Shown: one piece after another, positions 31,151 through 56,505 of the stretch | How the letters are laid out: every line of letters begins with the position of its first letter | Position numbering within the stretch: the first letter of the stretch is position 1 | Origin: a virus | Lineage: Duplodnaviria > Caudoviricetes | IMG/VR virus record: IMGVR_UViG_3300017821_000056 | Location: 32,001-96,000 of that record | Strand: one strand, 5' to 3' | DNA length: 64,000 nucleotides | The notes under the pieces: generated by a model | The model's database searches: none | The model's input: only the letters and a program-made list of their open reading frames with translations | What the model was told of the DNA's origin: nothing | Program-made: the position numbers and the translations under genes

Positions 31151-32236
31151 ATGAAGACGTGCCTGCTGTGCGCGGAACCGGCCTACGGTCGCGGCTGGTG
31201 CAAGAAGCACTACATGAACTGGTACCGGCACGGAGACCCGGCCTTCGTCACGCCCGAGCGCACCCGTGCGACCTGCACCGAATGCGGAGATCCAGCGATC
31301 GGACGCGGACTGTGCCGCAAGCATTACCTCCGCTGGTACAAGCACGGCGACCCGTCCGTAGTGCTGGACCGCCACCGCAAGCGCGGTCCTGAGACATGCA
31401 GCGAATGCGAACGCCCTGCCGTGTCCTTCGGCTACTGCACCAAGCACTACCGCCGCTTCAAGGTCCACGGCGACCCGTCTGTAGTGGGCAAGGCCGGCAA
31501 CAACGGCAGCCAGCGGAAGTACTCGGTGAACCACGACTACTTTCGGGAGATCGACACCCCCGAGAAGGCTTACTGGCTGGGGTTCATCACCGCTAATGGC
31601 AGCGTGAACGAAGGCCCGAAAAGCTACTGCCTCACGCTGGAACTGAAAAGATCCGACGCAGGCCACCTGCTCAAGTTCGCGGAAGCCATCGGGTCGGACG
31701 CTCCGGTCAGGGAGACCGGCCAGAACTGCTCGGCCACACGGATCCACTCCTGGAGGCTCGTTGAGAGCCTCGTCAGCCTGGGCGTGACCGCGCGCAAGAG
31801 CCTCGTTGTCGAGCCGCCGCTGGCGAGGCTGGCCGGGCTGGAGCGCTACTACTGGCGCGGCCTGTGGGACGGCGACGGCTACATCTCTGATAGGGCCGCG
31901 CGTTCCCGATGGCATATCGGCATCGTAGGCAGCCTCGCCTGCGCAGAGGGATTCGCCGCATGGGCGCGCGCCGCATGCGGCAGCTCAGCCAAGCTCTATA
32001 ACGCCGGCCCGAACCCGAGATGCTGGGCATGGGCAACCGGCGGGACGAGGATGCCGCAACTCCTGGGTGATGCCCTCAGGCAAGCCGGGCCGGGTTTCGG
32101 CCTTGAGCGCAAGCAGATCATGCTGGGAAAGCTCTGCGCCATTGACTTCGGTGAGCATGAGGCCCGGCTGAATGACGGCCGCTCGGCCATGATGCGAGAG
32201 GCCTGGGTTTCCGGCCGCCATCCACGAGCAAGCTAG
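31151..32236 (+). mobile_element. free-standing LAGLIDADG homing endonuclease with three N-terminal Zn repeats
   Basis: AYWLGFITANG and YWRGLWDGDG; TATACT-6-ATG leaderless promoter. Confidence 0.85.
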
Positions 32237-32262: not shown

Positions 32263-33263
32263 ATGTCGACGCCGCTGCCCCTGGGTCTTACTCCGTATAT
32301 ATCTCCTACGACCCTGCTCACGGCGCCGACATTATCGAAATTGGAATTGATTTTAGTTCGATACCTTCGGGCGACTACACCCAGCCTACGGAAAACTGGG
32401 CCGAGTGGTGGAACATGACGGCCAGGGCCACGTCGCGTGTCGACGGCTATTGTTCCCAGGTCTTGCGTGCCACCATCGACACTGAGCCGCTGCACGGCCC
32501 GGACTACCGGGTCACCGTGGGCCCCGCTGCGGGCGGATCGTACCCGACGCCGTACTGGGGGAACTCCGGGGCGCAGAACGCGCGGCTGATCCTGTCCCGG
32601 TGGCCGGTGCTGCAGGTGACGAACGTGGCGACCTGCCCGAACTCGCTGTGGCCAAGGTCGTGGACGAACCTGCCGGCCGGGTACTACGAGCCCGAGGTGC
32701 CCACTCTCGGCGTGTACGGCTCCATCTCCCCGGCCGGGTCCGCTGACGGGGGGCAGGCGATCCTGGTCGGCGGCGGGTACATCGACTGGTCTTACGGGCG
32801 TAACGGGTGGGCGATCCTGGTCACCTATATCAACGGGTGGCCGCACTGCTCCCTCACCTCGGCTGTGGCGGCAGGGGCCACGTCGCTGCCGGTGAACGAC
32901 TGCACCGGGTGGGGGATAACGGACTACAACAGCGTCTTCACCGGGGCGACCGGCCGGATCGTGGACTCGGGCGCCCAGGAAGCCATCCACGTCACGGCCA
33001 CGTCGGCGGCGTCGGGGCCGGGGAACCTGACCCTCTCCTCGCCGCTGAATTTCGCCCACACCGCGCAGACGCTTGTCACTACCTTGCCGGCGTCGATCGA
33101 GCAGGCGTGCATCCTGTTCTGCGTCGCGGAGGCCCTGACGAGGGGGGCGACGACGACGACGATCCATGACATCGGCGGGCACGCGCAGTCCACCGGGGGG
33201 GACGTGGCAGGGCTGACAGCGGAGGCCGAGCTCTTGTGCCATCCGTTCCGCAGAACTGTATAA
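32263..33263 (+). CDS. head-tail adaptor/completion protein split by an 11-nt TTA-led gap (32332-32342)
   Basis: RBS+ATG 32263 gives PYISPTTLLTAPT; other frame continues GIDFSSIP...RATSRVDGYC...Y.NGW...LPASIEQAC. Confidence 0.75.
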
Positions 33264-33304
33264 GTCTCGGTATGGAGTGGCGAGTCATTTTGCTACAGTG
33301 GGGC

Positions 33305-34018
33305 ATGGCAACCTGCACAGCAGCCGATGACTGCGAGAAGCCCCCGTTCCGGCGCGGCTGGTGCTCCATGCACTACTCGCGATGGCAGCGGTACGGCGAC
33401 TTCACCACCGTAAATAAGCCCGGCAACCCTCGGCAACTAGGCGACTGCCACCTCTGCGACAAGCCGGCTCTCGCCCGCGACATGTGCATCAAGCACTACA
33501 CCCGCTGGCAGCGGTACGGCGACCCGACGGTTACGAAGCTAGATCGGGACCGCACGCCAGAGGAGCGCTTCTGGCCGCGCGTCAACAAGGACGGTCCAGT
33601 ATCCGCTCACCGGCCCGACCTCGGCCCGTGCTGGGTGTGGACCGGCGGCCTCGCAGAGGGCTACGGGATGTTCTGGCTCGACGGCCGCAACATCCACGCG
33701 CACATCGTGTCCTTCACTTGGGAGTACGGCGACATCCCCGAAGGCTGGGAGCGCGACCATCTCTGCCGCAACCGTGCATGCGTGCGACCTGACCATCTTG
33801 AAGCCGTAACCCACTGGACAAACGTGGCGCGCGGCATCTCTCCGCACGGGCTGAACGCGGCCAAGACGAAGTGCCGTAACGGCCATGACTTCACGCCGGA
33901 AAACACGCGCGTGAATAGCAAGGGCCAGCGCGTTTGCATCGCCTGCGCTCGCGCAGCATGTTTGCGGTGGTACCACCGTCAGCGCCAGACGGAACCGGTG
34001 GCCGACGCCCTGTTCTAA
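33305..34018 (+). mobile_element. HNH homing endonuclease with Zn repeats
   Basis: RFWPRV, CWVWTG, DHLCRNRACVRPDHL, KTKCRNGH; TACAGT -10. Confidence 0.88.
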
Positions 34019-36937: not shown

Positions 36938-38329
36938 GTGAGCCTCGGAACGCCGAACATCTATCCGGGTGTGCTCACCTACATGGGCATCGCACGCGAG
37001 CTGACGGCCGGCACGCCGATCGTGCCCGTGATCACCCACCCGCTGAACCAGTCCGAGTTCGAGCCCGAGGACATGCCCCGCTTCCTCGATGACAAGGCCA
37101 TCCGCGGATCGATGACGGACCTGTTCTATAAGACGCTCGGCGTCGAGTCGGCCACGTTCAGCCTGGGCGGCCCCAACTTCCTCGACACCCACGGCTATTT
37201 CTTCGACAACGTGTTCGGGGACCTGTCCACGACGGGCACCGGCGCCCTGAACCCGGCCACGTTCAACTCGGCGCTCGCGGTCGGCGCGACCCAGGGAACC
37301 CTGTCCGCCGTCCCTCCCGCCCAGTACACGGCCGGGGCGGTCCTCCAGATCGGGACCGGGGCGACCACCGAAGTCGTCGTCATCGGCTCCACCGCCGCCT
37401 CCAACGTGGTCAACTTCGCGATCAGCTCGGGCGGGGAAGCGTACCCGCTGCGGTTCACCCACCCGACCGGCCCGACGGTGAGCACGGTCACATCCCCGTA
37501 CACCCACAAGTGGGCCGCCCTCAACTCGGCGCTCGGCTACGGCGGCGCGTACGGGGCGCAGCCCCCCACGCACACCCTGACCGACGTGACGAACCTGGTC
37601 AACACGTTCACCAGCGCCACCTACGGCACCGTCGCCACCTCCACCTACGGGGCGCGGCAGTACCCGAGCGCCGTCCTCAAGGACATCTCGTTCTCCGGGA
37701 ACGCCGAGCAGCTCCTCAACATCCGGATGACCGGCGACTCGTGGCTGTCGGTGATCGCCGGGACCGCCGTCACCAACGTGACGACGAACAGCCGGCCCAT
37801 CCCGAACTGGACCGCCACCGTCGTCCTCGCGGGCAACACGATCAGCAGCAGCAACACCTACAACGGGGTCGGCGAGTTCAACGTCAGCGCCAAGCGCGCC
37901 ACCCAGGTGTACTGGACCGTCCAGGGCACCCAGACCCCGTACATCATCGCCCGCGGCCCGCTGACGATGGACGGCACCATCCAGTTCGACCCGTCGAACT
38001 CCGAGATGCCGCTGGACCTGATGCTGCTGAACAGCCAGGCGCCCCTGAGCATCTCGCTGACCAACGCGAACATCACGAACGCGGGCACCCCGTTCACGCT
38101 GACATTCACGATGTCCCAGGCGGCGATGACCAAGTCCAAGATCATGCGGAACAAGGCTCTCCTGGGCTTCGGGAACACCATGGAAGCCGTTGCTAACTCA
38201 ACGGATACGGGTGGTAGCGGAGGGTTGGGGCCGGGGACGATTACGCTCGTCAACAACACGGCCGTATACGCTCTGTCATCAGATGACTTCGATCTGTATC
38301 TGGCGGCGCGGCACCTGTCGGAGGTCTAG
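36938..38329 (+). CDS. major tail tube protein
   Basis: MGIARELTAGT, YTHKW; precedes chaperone and tape measure. Confidence 0.85.
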   Translation: MSLGTPNIYPGVLTYMGIARELTAGTPIVPVITHPLNQSEFEPEDMPRFLDDKAIRGSMTDLFYKTLGVESATFSLGGPNFLDTHGYFFDNVFGDLSTTGTGALNPATFNSALAVGATQGTLSAVPPAQYTAGAVLQIGTGATTEVVVIGSTAASNVVNFAISSGGEAYPLRFTHPTGPTVSTVTSPYTHKWAALNSALGYGGAYGAQPPTHTLTDVTNLVNTFTSATYGTVATSTYGARQYPSAVLKDISFSGNAEQLLNIRMTGDSWLSVIAGTAVTNVTTNSRPIPNWTATVVLAGNTISSSNTYNGVGEFNVSAKRATQVYWTVQGTQTPYIIARGPLTMDGTIQFDPSNSEMPLDLMLLNSQAPLSISLTNANITNAGTPFTLTFTMSQAAMTKSKIMRNKALLGFGNTMEAVANSTDTGGSGGLGPGTITLVNNTAVYALSSDDFDLYLAARHLSEV

Positions 38330-39069
38330 CCGGCTTCTTGCTGGCGCTTTCGCTCGCGCATGCGCCGCTTGCGTTCTCGGGCAAGTTCTCGGACATGCTC
38401 CTGCTGCTCGGGACTCAGTTCCGAGACCTTCGGGATCAGTCCTTCTGCCTGCCGGCGGCGTTGCTGCTCGCGAGCGCGAGCGCGGCGCTTCTCAAGCTCA
38501 TTGGGCGGCAGGTCGGCCGATGGTGTCCACACCTGCTTGCCTGTCGCTTTCCTCGCGTAGTACTGCTCCAGTCCGCGCTCGCGCTTGCAGGTCAGGCAGA
38601 CCCGGCTCCCCTTGTTGTTGATCATGGTGTTCTCGGGCGTGTACTCATGACCCTGCGGGCACTCGGTGACATTCAACTGCCACGTAGTCCCGTGGCGGTG
38701 CTTGTCTCGCATGTTCTCGGCATGGGTCCCGTAGATCAGGTTGCCGCCAGCGGCCACGGTCTCCGCTTCATCGCCGGGTGCCCAGCGGTTGTTGCCGGGG
38801 TTGCCGTCCAGGTGGCGGACTTCCTGCCCTTCGGGGCAGGGGCCGACGAACGCCTCCATGACGATCTTGTGGACCTGGCGGGGCTTCTGCTTGCCGTCTT
38901 TGGTCAGGGTGACCCAGTGGTATCCGTTCGCCTTGACAATGACGTGCTTGAGGATGCCGCCGCGGGTTGTTGCTCGCGGCTCGCTCCAGACGTCACCCCG
39001 GTCTGATACGCGGTACAGGCCCTCGTAGTCAGGTACCCAGGCCCAGCGTTCGGGCGTAACGTCATCCAT
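38326..39069 (-). mobile_element. NUMOD4-HNH homing endonuclease
   Basis: W..VPDYEGLYRVSDRG; VHKIVMEAFVG; RHLDGN..NN..NL; CPQGHEY. Confidence 0.9.
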
Positions 39070-39153
39070 GTCGGAACCTCTCATCCAGGTTTCGGCCACG
39101 CCCCCGGACGATTTGCACTCGTCGCGGGGGTCTTTTCGTGCCTACATTCTACC
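39070..39153 (-). promoter_or_regulatory. TAGAAT promoter and two-hairpin 5' leader of HNH gene
   Basis: Stems 39070-39096 (covers RBS) and 39101-39130. Confidence 0.6.
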
Positions 39154-39220
39154 AGCTAGGAGCGGCGAATGGGCTTTGCCTCGCGGCATTCAGCCTCCCG
39201 CATAGGGGAGGTGATGCTTT

Positions 39221-40435
39221 ATGGCTAGGCTTATGTGGCACTCATGTGCTCCGTGGTCTGCCAGTTTAAAATGCGGATACGGAACCCAGACCGCGATCTG
39301 GACCCGGAAGCTCAAGGAAATGGGCCATGAGGTCCTGATCAGCAATTTCTGGGGACTGCATGGCTGTTCCCTGGAATGGAACGGCATCCCGGTGCTGCCC
39401 GCGTTCGGCGGGTCGTACTGCACCCCGTCGCTCGCCCAGCATGCGAAGCACGCGGACCCGGACCTGATCATCTGCCTGGGTGACATCTGGCCGATGGACC
39501 CGTCGCTGATGGCCGGGCTGCCTTTGGCGCACTGGCTGCCGTCGGACTGCCGGCCGATGTCGATGGCGGACCGGGAGAAGGCGGAGGCGGCGGGGCCGCA
39601 GCTGATCGCGATGTCCCGGTTCGGGGAGGCCCGGTTCCGGGCGGCCGGGTTCCGGGATGTCCGGTACGTGCCGCACGGCATCGACCTGGAGGCGTTCAGG
39701 CCGCCGGAGGACCGGGACGCGCTCCGGAAGGCGGCGGGGCTGGACGGGGCGTTCGTGGTGGGCGCGAACATGGCCAACAATGACGCGATCCGCAAGGCAT
39801 TGCCCGAGATCATGCTGGCGTTCGCCCGGTTCCACTCCGACCATCCGGATGCGCTGCTGGCCCTGCACACGGGGGTGCACCAGGACGGCGGCCAGGACCT
39901 GGAGGCGATCGCGGAGAACCTGGGGATCACGGACCGGTGCAAGGTGGTGGACCAGTACCGGTACACGTCCGGGTTCGTCACCGAGGAGGACCTGCGCGGC
40001 TGGTACGGGACGGTTGACGTGCTGTGCGCGGCGTCGTACGCGGAGGGGTTCGGGCTGCCGATCGTGGAAGCCCAGGCCGTCGGCTGCCCGGTGATCACGA
40101 CGGCGTGCTCGAGCATGGAAGAGCTTAACCCGCTGGGGATCTCGGTGGACGGCTCGCCATTTTGGAATGGCGTCCATCGCGCCTGGTGGGTCCGCCCCGA
40201 CGTCCGCGGGCTTTACGAGGCGTTCTGCCTGGCATACGAAAACCGCGACAGCGTGGACCGGGGGAAGCTGCGGGAGTTCGCGGCCGGCAACTACGAGGTG
40301 GGCCACGTGGCGGAAACGTACATGAAGCCCGTCGTCGATGAGCTTCTGGAAGTTATGGCACAGCGGCGCGGGAAGCGCCCGGAACTACAGGAAGCAGGCG
40401 CGGATGCGGATAACGCTGCCGTCGAAGCAGGCTGA
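39221..40435 (+). CDS. GT-B (family 4-like) glycosyltransferase with 9-nt TTA-led insert
   Basis: GYGTQ, VPHGID, EGFGLPIVEAQAVG. Confidence 0.9.
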   Translation: MARLMWHSCAPWSASLKCGYGTQTAIWTRKLKEMGHEVLISNFWGLHGCSLEWNGIPVLPAFGGSYCTPSLAQHAKHADPDLIICLGDIWPMDPSLMAGLPLAHWLPSDCRPMSMADREKAEAAGPQLIAMSRFGEARFRAAGFRDVRYVPHGIDLEAFRPPEDRDALRKAAGLDGAFVVGANMANNDAIRKALPEIMLAFARFHSDHPDALLALHTGVHQDGGQDLEAIAENLGITDRCKVVDQYRYTSGFVTEEDLRGWYGTVDVLCAASYAEGFGLPIVEAQAVGCPVITTACSSMEELNPLGISVDGSPFWNGVHRAWWVRPDVRGLYEAFCLAYENRDSVDRGKLREFAAGNYEVGHVAETYMKPVVDELLEVMAQRRGKRPELQEAGADADNAAVEAG

Positions 40436-41011
40436 CGGGTCGGAGAACTGGGTCGAGGTGAAGGGGGCCGACGACTTCCTCGCCGCCGACCTGTTCGCCA
40501 TGCACCGGGCGGTGCGGATCACCAACGACCCGACGGGGAAGACCAGCTACAGTCCTGCGGAGATGGCCGACGACCGGGTGAACGCGTTCCTCGGCGCGGC
40601 GATCACCGGGTGGTCGTTCCCGTCGCCGGTCCCTTCGCAGGCGAACGTAGCGGCGGCGGACGTGGTGATCGGCCGGGCGATGAAAGCCCGTGACTGGGCG
40701 GTGCTGCGGAACAAGGTCCAGCCGCTGATGGACGAGCTCGAAGGCGCCGACAGCAGCGACGATGCCGGGGACCCAAAAGAGACATCGCCCGGTTCCTGAT
40801 CTACCGGGCGAACCCGCAGGCCGACCCGGCCCGCGCCCCGGCGCTGCCGGACGGGTTCCCGGTGGTGATGTTCACGTACCGGATGTTCGCGGAACTGTAC
40901 GGGTGGACGCCGGAGCAGGTGCGGTCGCTGCGGCGGGATGAGCTGTACTGGCTGCCGGTGACGGCGGAGGCGTTCCGGGAAGCGGCTGAGACGCTCGCAG
41001 GCAAGGATTGA
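40404..41011 (+). CDS. tail assembly chaperone G (40404-40799) and -1 frameshift product GT (to 41011)
   Basis: Slippery C CCA AAA at 40772-40778; -1 frame has FAELYGWTPEQV. Confidence 0.85.
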
Positions 41012-41557: not shown

Positions 41558-44500
41558 GTGCCTAGAGGCCTCCCTTCCGTGGAGCAGCAGTTTTCCGCCG
41601 AGACGAGCGGGTACGACGCCGGCATTGCCCGGATGGTCGAGGACAACCGCCGGCTGATCGCCTCGATCGGGGACGTGCAGAAGCAGGTCGGCGAGATGAA
41701 CCGGCTGCTCGGTTCCCTGCCTGACCGCAAGGCGATCAGGATCAGCGTCGAAGGCGCCGACAGCGCGATAGCCGAGATAGCCAAGGTGAAGGCCGCGCTG
41801 GACGGCCTGGGCGATAAGAGCATCGCCATCGGCGGCAGCGAGGCGATGGTCCGCGAGCTGCGGGACATCTCGGCGTCGATGGACATGGCGACGTCTTCCA
41901 TGGGCCGGATGGAAGAACACCTGACCGTCATCAGCCGCAGCGTGCAGGATTCGTCCGCTGACCTGATGATGCAGACGCAGATGCTGCGGGACAACGCCGA
42001 CGCGCACAACGCGGCAGCGACAGCGGTAGCAGCGCTGGCGACAGCACGCGGCGGCGCTGGCGGGGGCAGCGGATGGGGTGCCGCAGCAGCCGGCGCCGCC
42101 GCGGGTGCCGCAGCGGGCGGCGGGGGCGGGGGCGGAGGAGGTGCCCCCGGCTTCGTCCCGTGGGCTGGTGGCGGCTGGCAGGCGGTCCGCTTCTGGGGGA
42201 TGATGGGCGCCGAAGTCGCCTCCACCGTGGTCCCCGCTCTCGTCGCCGCAGGCTCGGCGGCCCTGGTCGGCGCGCAGGGGTTCGAGCAGTTGCAGAACCG
42301 AGCGCAGGCGATCTACACGACTAGCGAGGCCCTGGGCGCCTCGCTGAACCAGACGTTCGGCTCGTTTGTCGTCGGCGGCAAGTACGGGAACGCCTTGCAG
42401 CAGGCCCAGAACATGGCCCAGGGCGCCGTGTACGGGATCGCCGGGGCAGGGATCAATCTTCTCCAGGGAGGCGCGGGCCAGGGGCTGCTGAACATGGGCG
42501 TCCAGACCACCGACATGATCAGCCGGAGCGCCGCGCAACTCGTGCTCAGTGCCCAGCAGCGGGGTCTCGGCGCGCAGCTCACCGGGCTGGTCGGCGGCGG
42601 CCCCCGGTACCTGCAGCAGTTCGGGCAGGTCGGGGCGAACCTGGGGAACATCCTGCTGGGTGTCGCGCCGAATCTGCCGGGGGTCGGCAAGGACCTCCTG
42701 TCCACCCTGGTGGGCGGGACCGGGGTCCTGGCGGCCGGTGCCGAGAACATCCCCAGCCCTCTCCTGAAAGGCTTCTTCACATACGAGGCCGCGTCCCGGT
42801 GGCTGCCCGCGCTGCTCGGCGGGCAGGGGCTGATCGGCAGGGCACTGGGCCTGCGGGGAGTCGGCGGCCTCGGCGGGCTGATCAGCAAGGGCGGGGAAGC
42901 GCTTTTCACCCGCGGCATGGGGGGTGCCCTCGGGGATGTCGGGCTCGGCGCGATGGGCTTCGGGGACACGCTCGCGGCGCTGACCGGTCCTGAGGTGGCG
43001 ATTCCTCTCGCGCTGATGCAGGCTGAGTTCGCGGGGCTTAACATGCTCCCGCGCGGCGCAGGAGGCGCGGCAGCGGGACAGATCGCGGGCTTGCGGGCGG
43101 GGATCACGGCGGGGGGTTTCACCGGGGCGTGGCAGCCGCTCGCCCAGGCGATCACCAAGATGTCCGGGTTCCAGGCCGGCCTGCCGGACTACGTGAGGAT
43201 GGCCGCGCCGACGCAGCAGATGCTGGCTTCCAGGGAGGGGGCCGGCCTGCAGGCCGCCTACGCCACGTCGCCTCAGGTGCTGACCGGGCAGGCGATGCAG
43301 ACCTGGACCCAGCAGCTAGGCGACCTGGTTGCGAGCGGACCGCAGCTGGTGTCCGCTCTGCAGAAAGCGGGGCTGAACACCAGCAACATGGCGGACGCGT
43401 TCATGATCGCGCAAAACGCGGGACTGGACCTGTCGCACTCTTTCAAGGCGAACGGGCAGCTGACCGATGTTGCCACGCAGCAGCTGAAGCAGTACACCGC
43501 CGCCATCGCGCCGATGACGAGGAGCACCGGCGCGTTCGGCGCGGCGGTGTCCGCGCAGTACATCATGGGCCAGCCTGCGGTGCAGAACGTCGCGAAGGTC
43601 AACCAGGCCATGGATTCCATGACCCAGATCATGACGGGAGGTCCCCTGGGTCAGGCGGGCCTGACCGGTGCGCTGGCGTCGATCCAGACTCTCGGCACCA
43701 CGCTGTCCAGTCTCGCCGCCGCACCTCCGGGTGCGGCAGGCCTGGCGAAAGCGAACACGGCGGTAGTCGCGCAGGCTTTGTCCAACGTGATCACCCCGGG
43801 CGGGGCGGCGGCATGGCAGGCGTTCGCCGGGTCCCCGGGCGGGGTTCCCGGGGTGATCCCGTCAACGCAGGCGATCATGGATCAGCTGCGGACGGCGCTG
43901 GCGATGGGCGCGATCGGTATTTCCGGGTCGGTGGCAGGAGGGGCACCTACTCCGGGCGGGGCGGCGGGCCTGGCCGGGTTCAATATTCTCCAGGCGCTCC
44001 CGGTTGCCCGGCAGTCCCCGGCGGCACTGGCATCGCTGATGCAGCAGGGCGCGCAGATGGGCGTGACCCCGTACTACGACCCGACTAAATCCCTGGCGCA
44101 GAACTATGCGGCTGCCGCGACCGCCGCCGGGAAGGTCGCGGACAATGCCAAGACGGCGAACATAGCTACGCAGGGTCAGGTCGTGAACTTGTCCCGGATG
44201 CCGCAGCTGGCCCAGCAGTTCGTCGGCGGCCTGAACGCGCAGACCCTGGCGAACCAGCTCGCGGACGCATCCAAGGCAGTGGGCCAGATCAGCACGCAGG
44301 CCGGGAAAGGGCTGGTCGACAAGGGCGCGCTGACCCAGCTGGTCGGTGATTTCAAGACGGCAGGGATTCAGGGTGCGGGGAATATCAAGGCGGCCCTGGA
44401 TTCGGCGCTGACCACAGCGGGCGTCTCCCAGACGATGCGGCTCAAGATCGAGGCTGAGGTTACGCCGCATGTCGATACCGCCGCAGTGAAGGCGGTGAAA

Positions 44501-46156
44501 ATCCCGGCGCAGCTGGAGACGAAGCTCGGCGCGCAGGATCTCCAGCAGCTGAAAGCATCAGGGACGGTCACGTGGACGAATAAGACCACCCCGCTTCCCT
44601 CTCAGCATGCAGGCGGCACGGTTGCGTGGCATAACAGTTTCACGATCCCCGCTGTCCCGACATTGCATGGCCAGATCATCTACACGACGACAATCGTCGG
44701 CGGCGTGGCGACTATCGGCACGACGAATGCCCAGGGATTCCAGAATGTCTCCCCGATAAAAGCCGCCCAGCGCGGCTTCAAGGTCCCCGGCTTCGGCGGC
44801 GGGGACATCTGGGGCCCGGCGATGCTCGAACCCGGTGAGCTGGTCGTCCCGAAGGGCATGGTGGCGGCCGGGGCGGTCGATCACCTGCGGGGGAAGATCC
44901 CCGGGTTCCAGGGCGGGGGGATGGTCCCGTACTTTCCCGGGGTGAGCGTGGCGATCCGCGCATCCATGCAGGATGTCGCGGCCGAGCTGGTCAGCTTCAT
45001 CCAGCAGGCCATGTCGTCGGTGACCGGAACCCTGCGTTCCGGCGGTGGTTACATGCAGCCTTACGGCGGGCTGCAGCCGTCCATGGTCCGCCCGCCGCAT
45101 ACCGCCGGTGGGTCGCCTGGTTCTATCCCGGTGCATGTGGCGAGTGTCGCGCCTGCTGCTGCTGCCGCCATGAGCGGCGGTGCTCCCGGTGCGCCGCTGC
45201 CGATGCCCGCGGCGGCGCAGAAAGTCCTCGACGCCTTCGAGAAAACCTTCAAGAGCATGGGTGACCCGTGGGGGAAACTCGCGTCGGAAATCCTCACCGG
45301 GCTTGAAGCAGCGGTGAAAGACCCGATGAAGGAGACAGCGGCAGCAGCGCAGAAACTCGTTAACCAGGTCACGACGGAGATTAATTTCGGGAAGAACCTG
45401 GCAGCGCAGACCCTGCAGGGCCTGAATCTCGCAGGGATGACCGTCCCCGCCCCGGGGAGCGCTATCCAGATGGTGCAGCCGGGTCCGGGGGCTAAAGGGT
45501 TCAACGCTGCCTCGTACAACGCGTACGTTCAGGCGTTCGCCGGTAACACCCTGCCTGGTGACGTGAACGCTGCGGCGCAGCCGCAGTCGGTGCAGCAGCA
45601 GATGCAGTCCTACCTGAAGTCCATCCAGGCGTTCTCCAAGGACATCGGGGAACTGTCCAAGGGCGGGCTGAGCAAGGCCGTCTTGCAGCAGCTGCTGGCT
45701 GCCGGGCCGGCACAGGGGGATGCGCTGGCGCAGTCGATCATGAGCGGCCCCGGGGGGATCAAGGCGGTCAACCAGCTGTACCAGCAGATCCAGAAGGCAT
45801 CGACGGGTCTGGGTGTCGCGGGGATGGAAGGCGTGTACGGGGCGCCGAAACAGCTGGCAGGCGCGATCAGCCAGGTGCATGGGAAGAAAGTGGATATTCA
45901 GACGAGCGCCCCTACGGGTCCGGTGCTGGCGTTGCAGTCCGCGATCAACGCCCTGCACGGCAAGACGGTGACCATCAAGGTGGTCATCGACACCGGCACC
46001 GGCGGCGGCGGCAAAGCCAGCGGTGCCCCTGTCTCCCTCGGGGACCTGTCCAAGGCGGACATCAACCACATCACCGCCCAGGTCCAGGCGTCACTCCTGC
46101 AGCAGGCCAAGCGCAACCGCCGGACCGGCCTCACCCTCCCGGGCTACGGGTCCTGA
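41558..46156 (+). CDS. tape measure protein
   Basis: 1532 aa Ala/Gly/Gln-rich helical protein after chaperone; VPGFGGGD...LEPGELVV motif. Confidence 0.9.
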   Translation: MPRGLPSVEQQFSAETSGYDAGIARMVEDNRRLIASIGDVQKQVGEMNRLLGSLPDRKAIRISVEGADSAIAEIAKVKAALDGLGDKSIAIGGSEAMVRELRDISASMDMATSSMGRMEEHLTVISRSVQDSSADLMMQTQMLRDNADAHNAAATAVAALATARGGAGGGSGWGAAAAGAAAGAAAGGGGGGGGGAPGFVPWAGGGWQAVRFWGMMGAEVASTVVPALVAAGSAALVGAQGFEQLQNRAQAIYTTSEALGASLNQTFGSFVVGGKYGNALQQAQNMAQGAVYGIAGAGINLLQGGAGQGLLNMGVQTTDMISRSAAQLVLSAQQRGLGAQLTGLVGGGPRYLQQFGQVGANLGNILLGVAPNLPGVGKDLLSTLVGGTGVLAAGAENIPSPLLKGFFTYEAASRWLPALLGGQGLIGRALGLRGVGGLGGLISKGGEALFTRGMGGALGDVGLGAMGFGDTLAALTGPEVAIPLALMQAEFAGLNMLPRGAGGAAAGQIAGLRAGITAGGFTGAWQPLAQAITKMSGFQAGLPDYVRMAAPTQQMLASREGAGLQAAYATSPQVLTGQAMQTWTQQLGDLVASGPQLVSALQKAGLNTSNMADAFMIAQNAGLDLSHSFKANGQLTDVATQQLKQYTAAIAPMTRSTGAFGAAVSAQYIMGQPAVQNVAKVNQAMDSMTQIMTGGPLGQAGLTGALASIQTLGTTLSSLAAAPPGAAGLAKANTAVVAQALSNVITPGGAAAWQAFAGSPGGVPGVIPSTQAIMDQLRTALAMGAIGISGSVAGGAPTPGGAAGLAGFNILQALPVARQSPAALASLMQQGAQMGVTPYYDPTKSLAQNYAAAATAAGKVADNAKTANIATQGQVVNLSRMPQLAQQFVGGLNAQTLANQLADASKAVGQISTQAGKGLVDKGALTQLVGDFKTAGIQGAGNIKAALDSALTTAGVSQTMRLKIEAEVTPHVDTAAVKAVKIPAQLETKLGAQDLQQLKASGTVTWTNKTTPLPSQHAGGTVAWHNSFTIPAVPTLHGQIIYTTTIVGGVATIGTTNAQGFQNVSPIKAAQRGFKVPGFGGGDIWGPAMLEPGELVVPKGMVAAGAVDHLRGKIPGFQGGGMVPYFPGVSVAIRASMQDVAAELVSFIQQAMSSVTGTLRSGGGYMQPYGGLQPSMVRPPHTAGGSPGSIPVHVASVAPAAAAAMSGGAPGAPLPMPAAAQKVLDAFEKTFKSMGDPWGKLASEILTGLEAAVKDPMKETAAAAQKLVNQVTTEINFGKNLAAQTLQGLNLAGMTVPAPGSAIQMVQPGPGAKGFNAASYNAYVQAFAGNTLPGDVNAAAQPQSVQQQMQSYLKSIQAFSKDIGELSKGGLSKAVLQQLLAAGPAQGDALAQSIMSGPGGIKAVNQLYQQIQKASTGLGVAGMEGVYGAPKQLAGAISQVHGKKVDIQTSAPTGPVLALQSAINALHGKTVTIKVVIDTGTGGGGKASGAPVSLGDLSKADINHITAQVQASLLQQAKRNRRTGLTLPGYGS

Positions 46157-55171: not shown

Positions 55172-55366
55172 GTGAAGTGGGGCGTGGCTGCGGTGTGCAT
55201 TTACGAGGCGGCCTCGATCACGACCGGCAGGACACCGACGATCACCATGCTCTGCGCCCGCCACAGATGGCTTGCCCCGGCCGTGCTGGCGACGCTCGCT
55301 GTTCATCTGTACCGGCAGCCGCGAATGCAGCGGCACAGCAAAAGCCCCCAGGAGGCGCGTGCATGA
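55172..55366 (+). CDS. small membrane protein
   Basis: Hydrophobic; ATGA-coupled to next gene. Confidence 0.6.
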   Translation: MKWGVAAVCIYEAASITTGRTPTITMLCARHRWLAPAVLATLAVHLYRQPRMQRHSKSPQEARA

Positions 55367-56505
55367 TACTGGGATGGCAAGGTAACAGCCCCACTACTAA
55401 CAGTGGCTACGGCAAGATGACTGCCCTGTTCGTCCCCCGCATTGCCGCCCTCGGACATGAGTTCGCCTTCATATCCTCCCCGTACTCGTTCGGCGGATCC
55501 CCGATCGAGTGGAACGGCATCCCGATCCTGGGGACGGCCCGGGACATCGCCGGAAACGACACCATCCTGAGAAACCACGAGTACTTCAAGGCTGACCTCA
55601 CGATTACCCTCGCGGACCCGTTCGGGCTGCTGAGATCCGCGAAGGAACTCGCCCAGATCAATCTGGCGTCCTGGTTCCCGGTGGACACGAGTCCCGTCGG
55701 CTACGGCGACGTGACGTTCCTGCGCGAAAGCGGGACCATCCCCATCGCGATGTCCCTGTTCGGGAAGAATGCCCTTGAGAACGAGGGATGCGAGCCGCTG
55801 CTGGTCCCCCACGGGTTCGACCCGGGCATCTACCATCCCGGCCCCCGCAGCTACCGGGACACGATCCCCGGCGTCACGGATGACACGTTCGTGATCGGGC
55901 TGTGCGCGATGAACCGGGACCCGAACCGGAAGGGGTTCTTCGAGCAGTTCGCGGCGTTCTCCCGGCTCCACGCGAGGCACCCGGACAGCTTCCTGGCGGT
56001 GCACAGTTCCCCCGGCGGCGGCGGGAAGGGCCTGAACCTGCACGGGATGGCGTGCCAGCTGGGGATCTCGGCAGCCGTCGGCTTCCCCGACTCCTACAGC
56101 TACGACCTGGGGCTGATCACCGAGGAGCAGATGGCGGCCTGGTACAACGGGCTGGACGTCCTGTCCTTGTGTTCTTACGGCGAGGGTTTCGGTTTGCCGC
56201 TCATCGAAGCTCAGGCGTGCGGCGTCCCGGTGATCACCACCGACGCCGCGTCGATGACGGAACTGTGCGGGGCCGGGTTCCTCGTCTCGGGGACCCCGTT
56301 CTGGTCAGATGGCCACACCTCCATGTGGACGCGGCCTGACATCTCCGACATCGACGCGGCATACGAGGCGGCGTGGAACGCATGGCAGCAGGGCGCGCTC
56401 CCGTGCAAGCCCGCGGCGGACTTCGCCGCGCAGTTCGCCGCGGACAAGGTGCTCGAGGACTTCTGGAAGCCTGCCCTGGCCGAATTGGAGGAACGGATCG
56501 GATGA
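55363..56505 (+). CDS. GT-B (family 4-like) glycosyltransferase
   Basis: SGYG, VPHGFD, EGFGLPLIEAQACG; paralogue of 39221. Confidence 0.9.
   Translation: MILGWQGNSPTTNSGYGKMTALFVPRIAALGHEFAFISSPYSFGGSPIEWNGIPILGTARDIAGNDTILRNHEYFKADLTITLADPFGLLRSAKELAQINLASWFPVDTSPVGYGDVTFLRESGTIPIAMSLFGKNALENEGCEPLLVPHGFDPGIYHPGPRSYRDTIPGVTDDTFVIGLCAMNRDPNRKGFFEQFAAFSRLHARHPDSFLAVHSSPGGGGKGLNLHGMACQLGISAAVGFPDSYSYDLGLITEEQMAAWYNGLDVLSLCSYGEGFGLPLIEAQACGVPVITTDAASMTELCGAGFLVSGTPFWSDGHTSMWTRPDISDIDAAYEAAWNAWQQGALPCKPAADFAAQFAADKVLEDFWKPALAELEERIG

Follow-up and report, generated by a model that had tools for sequence, protein, structure and literature searches.

An in-frame, TTA-led insert in a phage glycosyltransferase gene as a candidate translational bypass element

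The glycosyltransferase gene and its insert

The window analyzed here, a 64,000-nucleotide (nt) stretch of a tailed phage (positions 32,001 to 96,000 of IMG/VR record IMGVR_UViG_3300017821_000056), carries a glycosyltransferase (GT) gene in which 9 nt, TTA AAA TGC, are found within a highly conserved loop near the 5′ end (Table 1). Pfam recognizes Glycos_transf_1 in the gene product (1.7e-12; PF00534 and PF13692), the AlphaFold (AF2) model has the two-Rossmann GT-B fold with a predicted local distance difference test score (pLDDT) of 90, and the top Foldseek matches of the model are PBCV B736L, MshA, BshA, PimA and WaaG (E 1e-17 to 1e-12). The E-x7-E motif of the C-terminal domain is also in place, with E275 and E283 invariant. 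By these features of sequence and model, the gene is a GT4 retaining glycosyltransferase of the GT-B fold.

Residues S15, G19, Y20 and G21 are invariant in an alignment of 98 sequences, and the insert separates the serine from the three others, the translation reading MARLMWHSCAPWSAS-LKC-GYGTQ (SAS-LKC-GYG). In the model it falls in the β1-α1 loop (residues 9–19), where pLDDT decreases to 69, the sole low-confidence stretch of the N-terminal part. A first-pass annotation of this DNA, made from the letters alone, had described a 9-nt, in-frame, TTA-led insert in the SGYG motif, a paralogue lacking it and an adjoining NUMOD4-HNH gene, and this description proved correct in every detail: the paralogue in the window (35% identity) reads NSPTTNS-GYG, with a three-residue gap left by BLASTP at this point, and the gene upstream contains both NUMOD4 and HNH_3 domains. 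The bases from the last of AGT onwards (39265–39271) also form T_TTA_AAA, a canonical −1 slippery heptamer (X_XXY_YYZ) in the GT register.

Table 1. Location of the features discussed, and insert types found at the same loop in related GT genes (hyphens delimit the upstream codon, the intervening bases and the downstream codon).
Feature	Position or related loci	Strand	Basis or remark
GT4 (GT-B fold) glycosyltransferase gene, 404 codons	39221–40435	+	Pfam, AF2 model, Foldseek
Ribosome-binding site (RBS) GGAGG, 9 nt before ATG 39221	39207–39211	+	Read directly; relatives share GGAGGTGATGC context
Possible 5′ hairpin, codons 3–13, ending 6 nt before TTA	39227–39259	+	Minimum free energy −13.0 kcal/mol
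AGT (Ser15), putative take-off codon	39263–39265	+	Invariant Ser of S-GYG; AGT precedes TTA in 14 related inserts
9-nt insert TTA AAA TGC, Leu-Lys-Cys if translated	39266–39274	+	Absent from ~200 homologues
TTA, rare codon heading the insert	39266–39268	+	All inserts of relatives at this loop likewise TTA-led
AAA, middle codon of the insert	39269–39271
TGC, putative near-cognate landing codon	39272–39274	+	AGC in most relatives; +7 relatives L040, L045 and L112 also end in TGC
GGA (invariant G19 of GYG), resume codon if the insert is skipped	39275–39277	+	GGA TAC GGA from 39275
NUMOD4-HNH homing-endonuclease-like gene, divergent from GT, 122 nt upstream	38326–39099	−	Pfam HNH_3 1.8e-11, NUMOD4 2.1e-9
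Head-tail adaptor-like gene interrupted by an 11-nt TTA-led gap	32263–33263	+	Gap 32332–32342 after ACA 32329–32331; resumes at GGA 32343
Genes resembling homing endonucleases, flanking the adaptor-like gene	31151–32236 and 33236–34018	+	Repeated motifs
GT paralogue without insert	55366–56505		NSPTTNS-GYG
Capsid-like gene	36938–38329
153-aa gene	40338–40799
Tape measure gene	41558–46156
+4 insert, GGN TAT-T-TAC GGN	L044, L106, L167
+5 insert, AGT-TT-AGC	L011, L013, L014, L065
+5 insert, ACT-TT-ACC	L141
+5 insert, AAT-TTAGC-TCT	L133		Located five codons earlier
+7 insert, AGT-TTAA-AGC	L048, L059, L083, L117
+7 insert, CCG-TTAG-CCG	L022, L189, L190
+7 insert, AGY-TTAA-TGC	L040, L045, L112
+8 insert, ACT-TTAGG-GCT	L148

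Rarity of TTA in the phage

A scan of in-frame TTAs by periodicity of G+C at third codon positions was confounded by antisense frames, and a stringent census of open reading frames (ORFs) was used instead. Only two of the 1,502 leucine codons in 85 confident ORFs (17,812 codons of the 128-kb genome) are TTA, and that of the insert is the only one within a conserved domain, so that the insert is more than a chance occurrence. The other in-frame TTA is found outside the window (contig G000, position 120161, minus strand), as codon 84 of 91 and seven codons from the gene end, in agreement with a separate remark of the first-pass annotation on TTA at gene ends of this genome.

Inserts at the same loop in related genes

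The comparison comprised 120 database homologues (60–74% identity) and some 175 related loci on viral and metagenome contigs, in which the spacer was measured from the P-W codons to those of G-Y-G. About 100 of the 120 proteins read P-W-x-x-S-G-Y-G, eight have a two-residue insert (SPLPSGYG, SALASGYG, SASLSGYG and APSLSGYG) and eight have a cut or odd N-terminus, that is, an internal MGHEV start or a wrong frame. Three extra residues occur in the window protein alone; in none of about 240 sequences do three extra residues come from non-TTA codons, which had been named beforehand as the observation that would speak against a TTA-led element.

The canonical 9-nt spacer is present in 98 of 121 distinct 5′ ends and a frame-breaking insert in 18. 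Two further frame-breaking cases came to light behind proteins called from an internal Met, bringing to 20 the distinct frame-breaking GT inserts, which are 4, 5, 7 or 8 nt long and stem from 18 metagenome samples (Table 1). In-frame forms of 6 nt number about ten (CCT TTA CCC, GCT TTA GCC, AGT TTA AGC and ACT TTA ACC). Every insert at the GT loop in relatives is headed by a TTA in the upstream frame, and a general rule can be recognized: a sense codon (mostly NNT) is followed by the in-frame TTA and then by a codon of the same tRNA (mostly NNC) that abuts the resumed frame. Such a same-tRNA landing codon is present in 10 of the 14 GT insert types, or in 11 of 17 when three gaps of an adaptor gene (see below) are added, the chance of a match in the first two bases between take-off and landing codons being ~1/16 per type. 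A hop from take-off to landing codon would in this way always regenerate the canonical S-x-S-G-Y-G. In 23 of 30 cases TTA is followed by A or G, which creates UAA or UAG in the +1 frame.

The window insert TTAAAATGC corresponds to a +7 form with two bases more (TTAATGC plus AA, or TTAAAGC plus AT), and a quick IQ-TREE tree places the window GT gene within the clade containing all +7 alleles. Judging from the sequences, its simplest history looks like that of a +7 hop element turned in-frame by a 2-nt gain. No AGY triplet is found in or after the window insert.

Public gene calls for eight homologues (P0011, P0014, P0043, P0050, P0064, P0109, P0116 and P0044) start at the internal MGHEV or run in a wrong frame. 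Those of P0043 and P0050 are annotation artefacts, since the DNA has a CCG-TTAG-CCG gap upstream.

Selection on the frame-broken genes

The first 15 codons conserve M-x-R-I-L-W-H-S-C-A-P-W-x-x-S, with mainly synonymous differences between lineages, and about 365 downstream GT codons are open in every frame-broken case. For pairs sharing a frame-breaking insert, the ratio of nonsynonymous to synonymous divergence (dN/dS) was 0.20 for L059/L117 (dS 0.70), 0.20 for L040/L112 (dS 0.78) and 0.27 for L044/L106 (dS 0.75), canonical pairs having values of 0.10–0.24. By this measure of sequence divergence, genes with a shared frame-breaking insert remain under purifying selection.

Ribosomes that decoded the TTA and stayed in the upstream frame would, in the relatives, mostly stop within 12–30 codons. 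In L013, a TAG just ahead of the landing codon shuts the downstream frame, and ordinary initiation cannot, therefore, supply the conserved GYGTQTA. It follows that decoding must join the upstream and downstream frames. A single +1 or −1 slippage was considered and rejected, because it cannot serve +4, +5, +7 and +8 inserts alike and adds residues to the invariant loop; all frame-breaking forms can, at the level of sequence, be accommodated by a hop that spans the entire insert. The retention under selection of +7 alleles ending in TGC also suggests that UGC works as a landing site. The proposal of the first-pass annotation that skipping restores the loop is well supported for the relatives, in which two conserved and selected frames can be linked in no other way, and is plausible for the window, whose copy is in frame and whose TGC matches the take-off AGT at two of three positions.

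A second TTA-led gap in a head-tail adaptor-like gene

The GT insert had been assigned to the same class as an element at position 32332 of the window, and this assignment holds: both are TTA-led and lie at a conserved junction near a 5′ end, and relatives of both carry frame-breaking gaps that follow the same rule. At the second site, an RBS-led ORF starting at 32263 encodes MSTPLPLGLTPYISPTTLLTAPT, and the junction reads ACA-TTATCGAAATT-GGA ATT GAT, with the main ORF in another frame; the landing triplet, ATT, is not cognate to the take-off ACA. Four relatives of this gene (L181, L182, L185 and L187) are uninterrupted (APT-GID), L184 has GAT-TTAG-GAC and L188 has a 26-nt TTA-led gap that contains GGAGGG and ends in ACC. 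The product is presumably part of the virion, and since the 11-nt gap has to be skipped for the gene to be expressed, hosts of this phage must support such events.

One contig (IMGVR_UViG_3300032954_000028) carries both L167, with a +4 GT gap, and L188, with the 26-nt adaptor gap. TTA gaps seem to cluster in particular genomes, as this contig has both and four others have the canonical form of both genes. The two ORFs flanking the adaptor-like gene in the window have repeated C-x2-C...KHY-x-RW-x-HGDP motifs and, by these motifs, look like further genes of homing-endonuclease type.

Homing-endonuclease genes and the 5′ hairpin

Of 16 insert-bearing loci, 6 have an HNH gene no more than 1 kb upstream, compared with 9 of 78 canonical ones (Fisher p = 0.019, relatedness ignored), and for a distance of 3 kb the counts are 7 of 13 and 8 of 52 (p = 0.007, relatedness likewise ignored); L179 and L180 also have an HNH gene directly upstream. 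Many insert-bearing loci have no HNH gene nearby. The idea that the insert destroys a nuclease target and co-occurs with the nuclease gene in relatives has thus gained modest statistical support: the enrichment is found at both distances and bears on cleavage indirectly, but co-occurrence is far from general. A recent joint transfer of HNH gene and insert as one cassette was rejected, as the sequences upstream of the gene in L011, L013 and L065 resemble one another no more than the gene bodies do.

The position of HNH genes varies. Comparison of the window (36938–40799) with L001–L018 revealed the order capsid, 153-aa gene, GT in most relatives and the order capsid, HNH, GT, 153-aa gene in the window and in L016, and HNH genes were found in several different slots around the capsid gene.

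Hairpins predicted over codons 3–13 are on average more stable in insert-bearing genes (−12.1 kcal/mol) than in canonical ones (−7.8 kcal/mol), and the difference from the nearest canonical relatives is −3.5 kcal/mol (paired Wilcoxon p = 0.002). RNAalifold gave no consensus structure. When the window hairpin was imposed on 14 insert-bearing sequences, 64% of the cells could pair versus 50% in the nearest canonical relatives, with covariation not beyond that of shuffles, and whole-region folds had unremarkable z-scores. Lacking a consensus structure and covariation, the predicted hairpin is only a suggestive hint.

The phage genome and its relatives

The phage genome is a single contig of 128,210 bp (68.7% G+C) in which no tRNA genes were found, and the window contains virion genes of a tailed phage, including a capsid-like and a tape measure gene. 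Prophage relatives were sought in 185,579 reference genomes and none was found. Compared with isolated phages, the capsid gave no match and the GT gave matches of at most 35% identity.

In L034 and L066, the C-terminal part of the GT is partly duplicated: ~350 nt downstream, past the intact gene, lies a further stretch corresponding to residues 307–383 (~52–55% identical; L034:3168–3386 and L066:1371–1592). What had looked like a 550-nt insertion within the GT gene of these loci was traced to this duplicated fragment.

Proposed mechanism and alternative explanations

We hold, with moderate confidence, that the 9 nt of the window are a UUA-headed translational bypass element of the phiHau3 terminase kind whose length is incidentally a multiple of three. 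The ribosome would arrive at codon 15 with peptidyl-tRNA-Ser on AGU and meet UUA, a codon nearly unused by the phage, which the host is expected to decode slowly or fail to read. During the resulting stall, the peptidyl-tRNA would release AGU, the mRNA would slide and pairing would be resumed at the end of the insert (with AGC in relatives, with the near-cognate UGC here), so that decoding would restart at GGA and yield the canonical, invariant S-G-Y-G loop. The product of the hop would contain ...WSASGYGTQ..., while reading of UUA would give SAS-LKC-GYG, with the peptide ...WSASLKCGYGTQ..., and two GT products may be made in a ratio set by the availability of the UUA-reading tRNA. The insert, which interrupts the most conserved stretch of the gene beside an HNH gene, may also guard the DNA from cleavage, as in T4 gene 60 and mobA.

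Membership of the window insert in the class of UUA-headed hop elements is highly probable, and it is an atypical member, being in frame and having a near-cognate landing codon. Whether skipping is the origin of the functional window enzyme is evenly balanced. Several observations weigh against it: the in-frame length means that the sequence forces no hop, UGC mismatches tRNA-Ser(GCU) at the first position, and Cys resembles the invariant Ser more closely than any other residue, as would suit an LKC variant that is translated and keeps some function. In addition, the 5′ hairpin is without covariation support, the hungry state of UUA is deduced from the codon usage of the phage, and insert-bearing genes are scattered over the tree beside canonical sisters, with at least 14 changes needed. 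Skipping in the window copy is nevertheless plausible on the sequence evidence, because the phage shuns TTA, UUA must go unread at 32332, the Ser before GYG is invariant and +7 alleles with the same TGC end are retained under selection.

Alternatively, the insert may be a relic now plainly translated: a +7 element would have gained 2 nt in its A-run (TTAATGC to TTAAAATGC), restoring the frame, and Leu-Lys-Cys would be read wherever tRNA-Leu(UAA) is available, the loop tolerating three residues with Cys in place of Ser, and the sole remaining effect of TTA would be to make GT synthesis dependent on a host decoder of UUA. This explanation, which we consider rather unlikely although it deserves serious attention, agrees with the frame, with the non-cognate landing codon and with a TGC whose Cys is isosteric with the Ser that precedes GYG in all relatives; gene callers, moreover, translate the in-frame two-residue versions of eight relatives, and the loop is modelled with lower confidence in an undisturbed fold. 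It has to contend, however, with four invariant residues (S15, G19, Y20 and G21) in 98 sequences, with the fact that extra residues here in homologues always come from a TTA-led insert, with the avoidance of TTA elsewhere in a phage that must itself skip the TTA-led adaptor gap, and with the conservation under selection of the TGC-ending +7 relatives. The slippery heptamer is in the register of the GT frame and could promote a programmed −1 frameshift ending at a stop after ~20 codons, with a 37-residue peptide or reduced GT output as the outcome, but we give this almost no credence: downstream structure is not significant (z = −1.4), the −1 frame has no conserved ORF and closes after 19 codons, and relatives have inserts (TTAGC, TTAGCCG, TAT T TAC) that contain no slippery heptamer, which indicates that the heptamer is probably a by-product of TTA followed by an A-run.

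The frame-breaking inserts might instead be inactivating scars, for instance of error-prone repair after HNH cleavage, in genes that are dead or dying and involve no recoding, the window copy being one scar in frame by luck. The enrichment of HNH genes nearby would agree with this, short flanking duplications could stem from the fill-in of staggered cuts, and a capsid-associated GT may be dispensable. We nonetheless regard it as very improbable, given that ~365 codons are open downstream in each case, that dN/dS is 0.20–0.27 at dS ~0.7 between genes with the same scar, that conservation extends to the first 15 codons, which are in another frame, and that repair predicts neither the in-frame TTA heading every scar nor the NNT/NNC pattern of take-off and landing, a rule found also in the adaptor-like gene, presumably encoding a part of the virion. 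A more speculative extension of the bypass reading, to which we assign a low probability, is that TTA inserts are immunity marks at HNH cleavage sites, of which only the hoppable ones survive as "invisible" indels; the window insert would then be hopped over or read according to the tRNA-Leu(UAA) of the host, giving SGYG or LKC forms of the GT and switching virion glycosylation.

Translational bypassing is among the rarest departures from standard decoding, and the GT family would provide dozens of independent UUA-hop variants, from 4 to 9 nt long, with cognate or near-cognate landing, in and out of frame: a ready-made mutational series on what ribosome hopping requires. Gene callers truncate or mistranslate such genes (8 of 120 database proteins), and annotations of in-frame forms like that of the window may include residues absent from the protein. 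The link to HNH genes also suggests a general route by which selfish nucleases shape recoding.

Comparison with known bypassing systems

Besides T4 gene 60 and one yeast mitochondrion, natural candidates for bypassing have, to our knowledge, been published only for three terminase genes of Streptomyces phages or prophages. Smith and colleagues reportedly described UUA-mediated bypassing in the phiHau3 large terminase in 2013. The phiHau3 terminase has two 10-nt UUA gaps, and short UUA gaps were also described in the terminases of StrepC.1 and of an S. catenulae prophage (7 nt in the latter), UUA bypass being found in 3 of 100 terminase genes (Antonov et al., 2023, PMC10732093). Bypassing of this type was supported in 2023 by a full-length product in Streptomyces and a junction peptide detected by mass spectrometry (PMC10732093), and a 2016 review of recoding had regarded the phiHau3-type cases as the best candidates for regulatory bypassing (PMC5009743). 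We found no paper on UUA bypass in glycosyltransferase or adaptor genes.

The resemblance to phiHau3 lies in a UUA, here a codon nearly absent from the phage ORFs, heading a short, non-homologous block at a conserved junction of a high-GC actinophage gene, such that skipping restores the conserved sequence, and in most homologues being without the block. In the window, the block that homologues lack opens with an in-frame UUA and sits at a conserved junction; it does not shift the frame and its landing codon is not cognate, whereas a shift of frame is found in the 20 GT relatives (+4, +5, +7 and +8) and in the phage's own adaptor gene (+11). The blocks are 7–10 nt in the phiHau3 type and 4–11 nt here, and the gene is a terminase there, but a GT4 glycosyltransferase and a head-tail adaptor here, with the GT site at codon 16–18 from the start. 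Many of the hops considered here (+4, +5) are so short that the landing codon overlaps UUA. Against three terminase genes known before, dozens of natural variants follow the rule of NNU take-off and NNC landing, and they include in-frame forms, such as the 9-nt copy of the window, for which bypass is not obligatory.

In T4 gene 60, ribosomes bypass 50 nt from GGA to GGA, with a UAG stop after the take-off codon, a nascent-peptide signal and a take-off hairpin, and the insert lies beside the mobA homing-endonuclease gene and is thought to shield the DNA from the nuclease. The window shares with it an insert in a conserved gene adjoining a free-standing homing-endonuclease gene, and the GT family shares matching take-off and landing codons and possible help from a 5′ stem-loop. 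The gaps here, however, measure 4–11 nt, the place of the stop is taken by a rare sense codon and no shared sequence or structure was found; the window insert itself is a 9-nt gap without in-frame stop or conserved structure.

In E. coli reporters, Weiss, Gesteland and Atkins (1987) and Gallant and Lindsley reportedly described short hops across stop codons or hungry codons. Hops of +5 and +6 between synonymous codons around a slow codon have the geometry of AGT TT AGC and CCT TTA CCC, although the reporters are synthetic and of low efficiency, whereas the inserts described here are fixed in natural genes under selection. Finally, as in bldA-dependent regulation in Streptomyces, a single TTA near the 5′ end would tie expression to the state of tRNA-Leu(UAA); in bldA targets, TTA occupies an ordinary position and is decoded as Leu, whereas the TTA considered here opens an insert that does not belong to the protein family.

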